From IMG/VR virus record IMGVR_UViG_3300025929_000013, positions 32,001-96,000 of that record: 64,000 bases of DNA; one strand, given 5' to 3'. The stretch comes from a virus. The translations under genes were made by a program, and so were the position numbers. Every line of letters starts with the position of its first letter. Within the stretch, counting starts at the first letter, position 1. The notes beneath the pieces were generated by a model. That model did no database searches. It saw only the letters and a program-made list of their open reading frames with translations, and was not told the DNA's origin. Positions 59,228 through 63,014 of the stretch are shown piece by piece.

Positions 59228-60494
59228 TCAGTTGGTGTTGACGACCACGACGGACTGATCGGTGATCAGGCCCATACCGAGGATCGCGTACCAAGCCAGT
59301 GCATGTTCACGTCCGAAGTCCAAGACGCCGCCGTCGCGCAATTCCACTGGTAGAGAGATCGCGTGGCCGTAGGCGTTGTCGCCGATGAACGTTGAGGAGT
59401 ACACATCGACCGGAACGGTGTTCTGTGTCTTCGTGACCTGAGTCGTCTCGATGAAGATCACGTCGAACAGACGTCCCACCTCACCAAGCATGAAATTCCC
59501 CGGAGCCGCATATTTAGTGACCTCGATGAACTCGGGCGCTTCACGCAAATGGCGCGATTGGTGCGGATGGATGAATCCGACGTAAGTCTCCCCAATCCGG
59601 GGCACATTCTTCGTCGCCAGGGTCTCCGCGACGTCGCGGATGGCGGCCGGGGTGAGGTTGTACGTCCCGGTCAGTCCGTTGGTGGAGGTGCCCACGGTGC
59701 CGAAGTCGTACGGGCTCTTGTTGGTGATCGAGCCGCTGGGGTTGGAGTACCCGAACAGCAGGCTGCTGGCCGTCTGCAACGTTGATTGGGCCAGATTATC
59801 AAGGTATTGAGCCATGTTGCGGCCCAGGAGACGGCTGGCCGAGGCCATGACGTCGTCGAAGGACGCGTTGAGCAACAGCTCGGTGACAGCCACCGCATAT
59901 CCATGCTCGGCGACTGTGATCGAGAACTGCGACGCCGTGAGGGCGTTGGTCTGCATGCGAACACCCTCGACGAGCTGCGCCGCAGCGCCCAGGTTGTTGT
60001 ATCGCATGAAGTTGATGGTAAGACCTGGAGATACACCCAGTTCTGTCTTCTTCACAGCGAACTGCTCGAAGCGCAGAATCGGCATGGCCTGGAAGCAAGT
60101 TGTTACCCAGCAGTTACCCACTAGGGCCAGGTCGTTTCCGCCTGGCTCTGCACCTTTTCCATCGGTGCAGATCGGACTGTATCTTCGGCTCCAGTCCCGG
60201 TCGGCTATACCGGCCTTCCGGTCCTGTTGGAGTCGCCTCGCGTGCAGTCTCTACGGCGTCCCCGGTACGGGTTCCCTCGGTATTCCCCGTGCCACGAGTC
60301 ATGTTCTACGAGCGTCGGTGGGGTTCACCGATACAGCGTGGTGTTTACTCGCCGGTCACCCGACGAGGTCCCCTGGTGTCGAGGATTTCCTTCGACCATA
60401 TAGTTTGGATCGCCTGCGACAGCTGGTTGTTGGACCCGCTGTAGTTCGTCGGCGAACCCGACAAGTTGGGTGTACCCGTGATCGCATTGGCCAT
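59228..60494 (-). CDS. Major capsid protein, spliced: exon 1 60494-60382 joined to exon 2 60095-59228 (326 aa)
   Basis: Joined reading MANAITGT...QTIWSKEIL-FQAMPILRFEQFA...; GEVGRLFDVIFIET capsid-type motif; AGGAG RBS before ATG at 60494. Confidence 0.92.
60096..60381 (-). ncRNA. Group I self-splicing intron (286 nt, no homing endonuclease)
   Basis: Exon ends in U, intron ends in G; P1 UCCU/GGGA; core elements CUGUAUCGGUGAA, GGGAAUACCGAG, CCGUAGAGACUG and AAGAUACAGUCC; P9 hairpins. Confidence 0.93.
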
Positions 60495-60530
60495 GGTCGG
60501 CCGCTCCTATCTCGGGCGTGCTTGTCCAGC

Positions 60531-61313
60531 TCAGCGGTAGAGACCGCCCTGCCGGACCTGGTTGGAGGCTGCCGCGAGTAGTTGCTGCCGATGCGTCGCG
60601 TACTCCGCCATGGACATCTCGGAGATGTCTTTCGGAGTCAGCGTGCGCTGTGCCGGGTCTGTGTCCATCGGGCCGATGTTGGGGCGTCCGGTGGCGGACA
60701 CCCCGCGCAGGCTGGCCTGACGCGCCTGCGCCTGTGCTCCCGAGATCGCGTCAACGATCGCGGAGGATTTGGCCGTGAGCATCGCGATCGAGGCGTCGAT
60801 CTCCTCACGGGTATTGCCGGTCACCAGGTCCAGAAGCTCCGGGGCGATCGCATCACGCGCCTCGTCGACCTTCGCCTGGGTGTACGACTTCAGCTCGTTG
60901 TACTGCCGTTCCTTGTCGAAGATCGCCCGCTCTTCCAGCCGCTGGCGCTCCATCTCCGCCATCTGGGCCTGCCAGCGCTCGGACTCCTGGCGAACGAAGT
61001 CCTTGGCGGACATCTCCGCCTCTTCCCGCGCCTTCTGCGCCGCGTCCGCGTCCGCCTTCGCCTTGGCGATCGCGTCGGCCTCGGCCTGGCGCTCGGTCTC
61101 CAGCGCCGCGAGCTTGGACTGGATCGAGTTGATCGTCTCGGACTGCTCGCTCAGGCGGCCGTAGAGCTTGTCGCGCTCGTCCTGGCGGGCCTTCTGAAGC
61201 GCCGCCTCGGTGAACATGCGCTCGGCGGCGGGGTCTGCGGACGGCGGGGGAGTGGGCACCGGCACCGGGATGGTGATGGTGCCTGCGGGGTCGGTGGTCG
61301 GATCGAGGTCCAC
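60531..61313 (-). CDS. Capsid scaffolding protein
   Basis: Acidic coiled coil between portal and capsid; ends I..MSM.EY...R..LL. Confidence 0.85.
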   Translation of the reverse strand: MDLDPTTDPAGTITIPVPVPTPPPSADPAAERMFTEAALQKARQDERDKLYGRLSEQSETINSIQSKLAALETERQAEADAIAKAKADADAAQKAREEAEMSAKDFVRQESERWQAQMAEMERQRLEERAIFDKERQYNELKSYTQAKVDEARDAIAPELLDLVTGNTREEIDASIAMLTAKSSAIVDAISGAQAQARQASLRGVSATGRPNIGPMDTDPAQRTLTPKDISEMSMAEYATHRQQLLAAASNQVRQGGLYR

Positions 61314-61316
61314 GTG

Positions 61317-63014
61317 TCACGTCTCCGAAGACTTGTTGGTGTCCGGATTTCGCCACTGGGCCAATTTCGTCCCTGCGGCGAGTGCCACGAGTTCGTCCTG
61401 TATTTTCTTCGTGTCCTCGCTCAGCCCGCCCACGCCGGGAAGGCCGGGGAGCGGAGCGGGGTCGCCGGACGCGGGGCCCGGCGGTGGTGCGGGCGGCTCT
61501 ACCCCCTCTGGGGGAAGGCCGGTCATGTCGAGGATAACACTGGCTATCTGAGCCTTTAGTAGGTCCAGTACACCCTGGTGTTTGGTCTCCTCAAGCTGCT
61601 CGTCGAAGATCTCGGCCAGTGCGTCGGCCGGGAACTCCTCGCCCAATTCTCGCAGCGCCCCGCGCTTGGACGTGAGCCCCAGCTGCAACTTAACCATCAG
61701 CTCGTTGAGTTTGACCAGGACGTCGACCGGCAGCGGCGGCGGGAAGTCGGCGACCGTGCGGTAGACGAGGGGGTCGGTGGGGTCGAGCACGTCGGCCTGG
61801 CTGGGATCTGTCTTGAGTCCCTCGGTGTCCGGGTCGTAGTTCAGGGTCTGCGGCTCGAACAGGAACAGCGTGCGCAGGGCGAGCTCGTTGATGCGCGCGA
61901 ACCCCGCGGAGTACTGGATGATCTTGCGGTGGTAGCGCAACATCATGGGCTGATATTGAATGCTGAGTGCCACGCCACTGGTGTTGCTGACCGGCTGCTC
62001 CTGGCCGAGCGCGTTCTCCGGCACGCCCGTCATCTCGTGCATCGCGGTCTTCAAAAACTGGAGGTACTGGAGCGCCCACTCCAGCTCGATGTTGTTCTCC
62101 AGGTTGTAGACCTTGGCGTCCTTGGGCAGCCCGCCCCACACCTTGCGAGGGCCCTTCTCAAGATTCGAAGCTTTGGCCCCTGAGATAATCGTCACCGGCG
62201 CCGCGTGGTAGTCGATGATCTCGCTGATGTTCGTGGCTTGCTCGTTGAGTTCCCTGTTCAGCGAGATGATGTCCGCGATGTCGGACAGCCCCCAGGGCGA
62301 CCCGGGCACCTCGATATTCGTGATCGGCACGATCGGGATCTCGCCGAGCCCGTTGGGGTGCGAGTCGATCAGCTCATCGTTGATGTACTCCTCGACATAC
62401 TCGTCCGTGATGATCTCAGTGTATGTATATACCTGCCGCGTGCCCTCTGTAGAGGTACCCCAAAAGCGGTATTTTAGCTTAAAACGGACAAGTCGCTCAG
62501 GATCGTGTGGATGATATTCAGGGAATGCGAAGCTCGGGTTGATCGCCAGCAGCCGCACGCGGCCGGGGTGCTGCATCCCCGCGGCGTCCGTCCACGCGGG
62601 CTCATACGCCACCTTCACGAAGACGTCCCCGCAGACCCCGGCGAGCTCGCCGATCTGCATCAGGAGCTTGTCCTTGCGGTTGTCGACCTCCCACACCCTT
62701 TTGAGCAGGGCGGGGACGATGTGCTCGGTGGCCTTGTCGCTGGCGAAGTGCACGCCGCGCGAGAAAGTGAAGGAGGTGATGAAGCGGGAGAACGCCGCCG
62801 TGTAGTTGAAGGTGAGCTGCGTTTCGCCCGATTCGCGACGATATCCCCAGTGATGTCCCAAAAACCACGCCAGATTCTGGGCATAACGGTTCAAACGTGG
62901 ACCATGCACCTCAAATTCCTCGTCGGCCAATTCGACGAGTCCGAGGGGTGATATAGCAACGGTGAGATCCGACGCCGCGGCCCGCATGGAGGGGGACGGG
63001 AACGACATCGACAC
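61317..63014 (-). CDS. Portal protein (SPP1 gp6-like)
   Basis: N.LG.IP.V...N, G.SDI and N.SGVAL; 565 aa upstream of the scaffold. Confidence 0.9.
   Translation of the reverse strand: MSMSFPSPSMRAAASDLTVAISPLGLVELADEEFEVHGPRLNRYAQNLAWFLGHHWGYRRESGETQLTFNYTAAFSRFITSFTFSRGVHFASDKATEHIVPALLKRVWEVDNRKDKLLMQIGELAGVCGDVFVKVAYEPAWTDAAGMQHPGRVRLLAINPSFAFPEYHPHDPERLVRFKLKYRFWGTSTEGTRQVYTYTEIITDEYVEEYINDELIDSHPNGLGEIPIVPITNIEVPGSPWGLSDIADIISLNRELNEQATNISEIIDYHAAPVTIISGAKASNLEKGPRKVWGGLPKDAKVYNLENNIELEWALQYLQFLKTAMHEMTGVPENALGQEQPVSNTSGVALSIQYQPMMLRYHRKIIQYSAGFARINELALRTLFLFEPQTLNYDPDTEGLKTDPSQADVLDPTDPLVYRTVADFPPPLPVDVLVKLNELMVKLQLGLTSKRGALRELGEEFPADALAEIFDEQLEETKHQGVLDLLKAQIASVILDMTGLPPEGVEPPAPPPGPASGDPAPLPGLPGVGGLSEDTKKIQDELVALAAGTKLAQWRNPDTNKSSET

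Follow-up and report, generated by a model that had tools for sequence, protein, structure and literature searches.

The question at this locus is where the major capsid gene begins, and what separates its beginning from the rest of the reading frame. The window (the whole stretch of 64,000 nucleotides that was analysed) belongs to a 108,847-bp IMG/VR virus record with a CheckV completeness of 100%. The virus is a BRock-like (Borockvirus-like) siphovirus that probably infects Streptomyces. Its capsid protein matches PHROG 1357 'major head protein' (E 7e-59) as well as the Pfam family Phage_capsid_4, and the gene has a scaffolding-like gene and a portal gene as neighbours. The program-called capsid ORF (59228-60121) matches PHROG 1357 only from profile position 42, the match beginning at residue 9 (FQAMPIL...) of that ORF; the called ORF therefore lacks about 40 N-terminal residues.

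The original prediction held that this ORF has no sensible N-terminus, that the real start is ATG 60494 and that a group I intron interrupts the gene. The first two points are borne out. From ATG 60494, which is preceded by an AGGAG ribosome-binding site, the minus strand reads MANAITGTPNLSGSPTNYSGSNNQLSQAIQTIWSKEIL, 38 codons ending in ...WSKEIL, and exon 1 aligns with residues 1-38 of the capsid proteins of phages BRock and Alone3. Without splicing the frame runs into TAA 11 codons past WSKEIL, giving an ORF of 49 aa (60345-60494). Removal of 60381-60096 joins CU|C (Leu38) to UUC CAG GCC AUG (FQAM), and the spliced capsid product counts 326 aa. Positions 60381 and 60095 both carry a C, so the cut could equally be drawn one base to either side; only the cut 60381-60096 gives a 5' exon ending in U together with an insert ending in G. 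The gene and its surroundings are arranged as follows:

61317-63014: portal gene, neighbour of the capsid gene
60531-61313: scaffolding-like gene, neighbour of the capsid gene
60508-60504, minus strand: AGGAG ribosome-binding site, 9 nt upstream of ATG 60494
60382-60494, minus strand: capsid exon 1, from ATG 60494 to U 60382, comprising 37 codons and the CU of Leu38
60096-60381, minus strand: insert of 286 nt, assigned to group I introns; first base C 60381, last base G 60096 (omega-G)
59228-60095, minus strand: capsid exon 2; C 60095 is the third base of Leu38, followed by FQAMPILRF..., and the stop codon ends at 59228

Contiguity of the capsid gene in relatives

The nearest cultured relatives are the Streptomyces phages BRock, Alone3, LuckySocke, pSt2308 and GiJojo, with capsid proteins that are approximately 70% identical to that of the window. 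The residues EIL|FQAM are contiguous in six cultured Streptomyces phages. The annotated capsid proteins of the cultured relatives measure 340 aa and contain the unbroken stretch ...IQTLWSKEILFQAMPILRFEQFAVKK...; in BRock and Alone3 an unbroken ...WSKEILFQAMPILRFEQ... runs across the junction. Uncultured relatives give the same picture: among the best 80 IMG/VR relatives of exon 2, exon 1 is joined straight to exon 2 in 79; in the last one an intron lies four codons before EIL|FQAM. The nearest relative (L124, 90% amino acid identity) carries the DNA ..GAGATCCT|CTTCCAGGC.., in which the two exon ends of the window abut exactly, so that the insert measures 286 nt. The site itself lies in a highly conserved capsid stretch (EIL|FQAMPILRFEQ). 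The alignment of homologues across WSKEIL/FQAMP that had been proposed as a check thus shows them contiguous exactly at EIL|FQAM, and the predicted boundaries 60381-60096 with their in-frame CT|C join are confirmed by the cultured phages, the 79 IMG/VR relatives and the L124 DNA.

A DNA run that contains the stretch without differences probably represents its source sample, likely a microbial fuel cell metagenome. Sequences of a close phage relative are also present in rhizosphere RNA libraries, where three metatranscriptome runs contain 33-50% of the words of the window stretch. Two contigs of 2,219 and 1,849 nt (runs X2 and X3) have 60094 next to 60381 and lack exactly the 286 nt in between. 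They span the scaffolding and capsid genes (59228-61313) and are about 96.5% identical to, and about 3.5% different from, the window. No intron sequence was seen in runs X2 and X3, and run X4 and the runs with small shares contained nothing across the junction. Given the divergence of about 3.5%, the lack of intron sequence and the possible presence of DNA in RNA libraries, these contigs are explained equally well by an intron-less sister strain and by spliced RNA. The contigs confirm the intron boundaries and are not proof of splicing.

Run X2 holds a further, more divergent capsid contig (record 9, window 60033-60091), which past 60091 encodes ...QTIWSKEILF and represents another allele contiguous at the EIL|FQAM site.

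Structure and internal guide of the insert

A group I structure drawn by hand was mapped onto an alignment of 33 sequences (A1) and comprises P1, P2, P3, P4, P5, P6/P6a, P7, P8/P8a/P8b, P9, P9a and P9b. In the window its elements are placed as follows:

60369-60385, minus strand: P1, formed by UCCU|C (60385-60381) and the internal guide GGGGA (60373-60369)
60348-60367, minus strand: P2, a hairpin of 8 bp with a GUGA (GNRA) tetraloop
60341-60336 with 60241-60236, minus strand: P3, within 60236-60341, enclosing the P4-P5-P6 domain
60331-60326 with 60282-60277, minus strand: P4, UCGGUG/UACCGA
60323-60320 with 60288-60285, minus strand: P5, with a 31-nt loop (60319-60289)
60276-60255, minus strand: P6/P6a
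60267-60263 with 60212-60208, minus strand: putative kissing contact of the P6 loop (UACCG) with the P8 loop (CGGUA), within 60208-60267
60174-60251, minus strand: P7, with G 60251, bulged A 60250 and GACUG 60249-60245 pairing with CAGUCC 60179-60174; encloses P3' and P8
60232-60189, minus strand: P8, inside P7
60097-60170, minus strand: 3' domain with P9, P9a, P9b and a conserved GUAACA tail leading to the omega-G
60170-60148, minus strand: P9
60146-60126, minus strand: P9a, with a GAAA loop
60125-60106, minus strand: P9b, with a GUAA loop

Both splice sites obey the rules for group I introns. At the 5' splice site U 60382 stands opposite G 60372 in a U.G wobble, and the guide GGGGA consists of the five nucleotides that precede P2. 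At the 3' side the last nucleotide of the insert is G 60096, directly before exon 2, and wherever the 3' junction of an aligned family member can be defined, the intron likewise ends in G. Of 48 distinct family members, 34 form all five pairs of P1 in the register seen here, U.G included, against 5.2 expected from shuffled guides. The pairing is kept while its letters vary from one insertion site to another (guide/exon combinations GGCCG/CGGUC, GGUCG/CGAUC, GGACG/CGUUC, UGCCC/GGGUA and AGUCC/GGAUU), and a guide that changes along with its exon shows the behaviour expected of a true internal guide sequence. A P10 helix, in which the guide region would pair with the 3' exon, could not be convincingly traced by eye.

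Support for the remaining helices comes from the alignment. Over the 33 sequences 91.4% of the alignment cells are standard-paired, against 33-40% if the 3' partners are slid by 1-3 columns; both-side changes occur at 51 of 80 pairs, and 0 of 500 shuffles matched any observed measure. Covariation is strong in P2, P3, P6, P8, P9 and P9a, whereas no variation occurs in P4, P5 and the greater part of P7. The hairpin P2 is 96.6% paired with both-side changes in 7 of its 8 pairs, and the helices of the P3-P4-P5-P6 domain (alignment helices 3-5) are 92-100% paired. Both-side changes affect three of the six pairs of P3 and two of the five of P7, the others being invariant. One position of P3 is an A.A mismatch in the window copy, and about half of the 33 aligned members have no standard pair there. 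The closing pair of P7 (G 60251-C 60174) is C-G in BAKA and A-U in L096; the window has G-C where most copies have A-U, a compensatory change. P3 crosses P7 to form the group I pseudoknot, and the P3-P8 core is present with covariation. Of the elements named in the original prediction, P1, P4, P7 and the three 3' hairpins are all real and conserved in the alignment, and the U.G pair and terminal G fall at U 60382/G 60372 and G 60096. The predicted guanosine-binding pair is G 60249-C 60175, beside the bulged A 60250, which we take to be equivalent to G264-C311 of Tetrahymena.

A further contact covaries outside the classical helices. The pairing between the P6 and P8 loops is 96.3% paired with both-side changes in all five pairs (33 sequences), and BAKA has CACAUU with AAUGUG at the same positions. 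Judged from these alignments, the two core domains seem to be clamped together by this kissing-loop pairing. For a pairing of the P6 and P8 loops in group I ribozymes nothing relevant turned up in the literature searched, which we do not take as a verdict on newness.

The layout is compact: P3' follows directly after P7 and leaves no room for P7.1/P7.2, and P5abc is absent. Together with the GUAGAGACU motif this is, to our reading, presumably reminiscent of IC3 introns. The unconstrained minimum-free-energy fold was rejected, as it pairs the 3' strand of P7 with the P3/J3-4 region.

With 31 nt, the P5 loop (60289-60319) is longer than in most relatives, where it has 8-17 nt, and contains an imperfect direct repeat, CUCGUAGAAC ... 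CUCGUGGCAC, which is similar also to the J6/7 segment CCGUAGAGAC. A long P5 loop is common to a subfamily (L085, L044 and L118) found at another capsid site.

Homology, spread and rival readings

With Rfam 15 no family was found in the whole window at gathering thresholds, and Intron_gpI gave no match at E <= 10 on a 701-nt slice (59900-60600). The gathering score of RF00028 (Intron_gpI) is 50 bits, an operational and not a structural criterion, and two positive controls stay below it: BAKA with 28.6 bits (E 2.8e-4) and LittleE with 30.7 bits (E 6.7e-5). Introns at the same capsid site reach 56.7 (L073), 41.1 (L048) and 31.5 bits (L081), and other introns of those same capsid genes 53-86 bits. 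The main differences between the window copy and these same-site relatives are the P5 loop of 31 nt and the greater length of P8 in the former, which probably account for the miss. In the same slice Rfam returned a flavivirus element, on the wrong strand; we consider it a chance match.

A model made from the family itself behaves differently. Built from 32 relatives with the window copy left out (160 positions, 31 base pairs), it matches the window intron over its full length with 160.9 bits (E 1.7e-39), as the sole match in the 64 kb; a leave-one-out nhmmer profile scores it at E 9e-64. The absence of a covariance-model hit, named with the original prediction as a refutation, applies literally to Rfam Intron_gpI, which is silent on the window copy, but is overturned by the hits on close relatives and by the family model.

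The connection with BAKA was made through the literature, followed by a motif scan. In a blastn comparison of the window intron with BAKA, 172 nt align at approximately 71% identity (E 8e-14). Shared blocks include GUAUCGGUGAACCCC...GGGGAAUACCGAGG, GUA.AGACU, GAAG.UA.AGUC, UCUGCA.CGAUGG.AAAG.UGCAGAG and CAGGC.GAAA.GACCUGGCC. A blastn search of the intron against 50,697 phage records gave no match. Scanning IMG/VR with a degenerate P4-P5 core motif (ATCGGTGRANCCC...GGGNAATACCGAG) yielded at least 116 loci, and an nhmmer profile of the 33 aligned copies (A1) finds 112 family copies in 78 of these at least 116 loci. Against the same loci the best blastn match of the window intron is 89% over 164 nt, followed by 82% over 219-232 nt. 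No second copy was found in the phage's own genome by blastn, nhmmer or the covariance model. By sequence comparison, the window intron is a member of the BAKA/LittleE-type actinophage intron family, homologous across the whole ribozyme.

With an exact insertion, homology to introns that are known to splice, a covarying core and correct splice-site rules, the assignment to group I is well supported. We are confident that the insert 60381-60096 is a compact, ORF-less group I intron in the major capsid gene, in agreement with the original prediction. By analogy with its relatives, the window copy would be expected to splice, and to do so unaided. The capsid gene would be transcribed together with the upstream scaffolding gene late in infection. 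The RNA would then fold into a P4-P6 domain and a P3-P8/P7-P9 domain, with the P3/P7 pseudoknot and the P6-P8 kissing clamp, and the guide GGGGA would pair with UCCU|C, placing U 60382 in the U.G wobble. The first attack, after U 60382, may come from an external guanosine that occupies the G-C pair in P7, and the freed exon end may in turn attack after the terminal G 60096. The ligated mRNA would read CU|C as Leu38, then Phe39, and encode the 326-aa HK97-type capsid protein; unspliced RNA would yield the 49-aa peptide only.

Matches in other samples show how such introns are distributed. Among the matches listed, the site Leu38|Phe39 is occupied in eight loci from other samples (L073, L048, L081, L120, L089, L123, L059 and L012). 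Among the matches listed, BRock-type capsid genes on IMG/VR contigs carry introns after approximately residues 34, 38, 46, 52, 69, 99 and 133-137, and further ones after approximately residues 230-237, 251, 313 and 326. Some capsid genes hold three to five introns and are thus split into four to six pieces (L053:60-1900, L048:1600-4180 and L093:5660-8020); most of the introns in these three genes are detected by RF00028 (33-86 bits). The portal gene of L087 contains two. The family also splits unrelated capsid genes of PHROG 10 (L114:1685-3136, L122:6183-7382, L115:1388-2557 and L104:3162-4115), and in one locus (L054:4741-6084) the profile gives a weak match of 50 bits immediately following an ORF similar to a tape-measure gene. 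It seems that the family favours late structural genes.

As the original prediction stated, the window intron encodes no endonuclease: ORFs on either strand match no Pfam family, and in the family alignment the lengths of insertions and deletions are not multiples of three. The additional suggestion of mobilisation in trans finds no support as far as an enzyme of the phage itself is concerned. Six frames of the 108,847-bp genome contain no HNH, HNH_3, GIY-YIG, LAGLIDADG_1 or LAGLIDADG_3 domain, so the phage seems to be without a homing endonuclease of those families.

This distribution also bears on the role of the intron. According to the original prediction, splicing could serve as a checkpoint of timing or metabolism; on such a reading it would be rate-limiting for capsid production and would sense GTP. 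Capsid synthesis does depend on splicing, and guanosine is the cofactor of group I splicing. However, only a minority of relatives have the intron at EIL|FQAM (0 of the 80 closest), family copies sit at 10 or more other positions of the same gene as well as in unrelated capsid genes, the pattern of a mobile passenger, and no regulatory element was found. A checkpoint finds no support here and is improbable; an element that is scattered and variable in presence and absence fits a selfish passenger, and most likely the intron is just that, an efficiently splicing passenger rather than a regulator.

Still less probable is that the intron has decayed and no longer splices, so that the phage lineage would be defective or dying and its capsid gene a pseudogene. 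One may point here to the Rfam miss, to the A.A mismatch in P3 and the unusual P5 loop, and to RNA contigs that are not unambiguously tied to the window strain. Yet the core helices are all intact, and so are the U.G wobble, the bulge in P7 and the terminal G; the mismatch recurs in about half of the family and the long loop in the subfamily L085, L044 and L118. In addition, both exons are intact, the capsid protein is 70% identical to that of BRock, and the genome is complete according to CheckV.

An explanation other than an intron (a small transposable element, an assembly chimera or ribosomal bypassing) might appeal to the absence of a protein-coding gene and the silence of Rfam, but can be dismissed given that terminal inverted repeats are lacking, that there is no target duplication beyond the single ambiguous C, that homologous copies at the same site occur in 8 contigs of other metagenomes (among the matches listed), that a 30-kb DNA contig covers the region without differences, that the group I structure covaries, and that a gap of 286 nt far exceeds any ribosomal bypass known to us.

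The selfish, splicing intron can be placed in a wider scenario, which we put forward tentatively. It may belong to an undescribed radiation of small, endonuclease-free group I introns favouring the major capsid genes of soil actinophages, with at least 10 sites in one capsid family, up to five introns per gene and entry into a second, unrelated capsid family. Spread could proceed by, for example, reverse splicing or recombination during co-infection, perhaps with a P6-P8 kissing clamp not described before.

Significance and known systems

For annotation the consequence is direct: the capsid gene is miscalled as a truncated ORF, here and in many uncultured relatives, unless the intron is recognised, and a standard Rfam scan misses the window intron. 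High-GC phages whose virion proteins are known to require RNA splicing are few; a Streptomyces-phage-like lineage now joins them and is tied to experimentally validated mycobacteriophage introns. With its 112 copies in 78 of at least 116 loci and its strong covariation, the collected family could support a dedicated covariance model as well as a study of how endonuclease-free introns spread among capsid genes. The part that might repay further work consists of the multi-intron capsid genes, the absent endonuclease and the kissing loop.

Compared with known systems, the introns of T4 td/nrdB/nrdD, of the SPO1 DNA polymerase gene and of Twort-like phages share the ribozyme class with the window intron. 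Such classical phage introns belong to subgroup IA2 and carry extra P7.1/P7.2 helices, which are absent here. They also differ by residing mostly in DNA-metabolism genes of phages with low-GC or Gram-negative hosts, and often carry endonuclease ORFs. Like the window intron, the classical introns tend to lie in conserved parts of essential phage genes (PMC3706429, PMC2988022). The original prediction named DNA-metabolism genes of enterobacterial and Firmicutes phages as the best-known sites of phage group I introns; the rarity that this implies for the present case is overstated, as such introns have been known from capsid and tail genes of high-GC actinophages since 2013 (PMC3706429).

Among the latter, LittleE likewise has a group I intron in an actinophage major capsid gene, and its 5' core is 92% identical to that of BAKA. 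Its splicing was demonstrated by RT-PCR and N-terminal protein sequencing (PMC3706429). Unlike the window intron, the LittleE insert measures approximately 820 nt, bears a homing-endonuclease gene on the opposite strand, and lies at another site in another capsid family.

The same-site introns from IMG/VR, of which the literature searched gives no description, share the codon position (Leu38|Phe39), the guide GGGGA and the architecture, and are 68-76% identical over the whole intron. They differ in having no long P5 loop, and several of their genes carry two to five further introns.

A further validated counterpart is the ORF-less insert of 265 nt in the minor tail gene of BAKA, for which splicing was shown by RT-PCR (Pope et al. 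2013, PMC3706429). BAKA/Optimus and the window intron agree in helix order, in a near-identical P4/P5/J6-7/J8-7 core, in the P9, P9a (GAAA loop) and P9b hairpins and in the P6-P8 loop pairing, and both have no ORF, a U before the intron, a G at its end and a high-GC actinophage host. Differences concern the gene (tail instead of capsid) and the lineage (Omegavirus, with a Mycobacterium host), the P5 loop (8 nt in BAKA against 31 nt), a shorter P8 in BAKA, and detection by Rfam, which is weak for BAKA (28.6 bits) while the window copy goes undetected. Capsid and tail genes of actinophages were thus already known to contain group I introns, and the window intron adds one member to this group.
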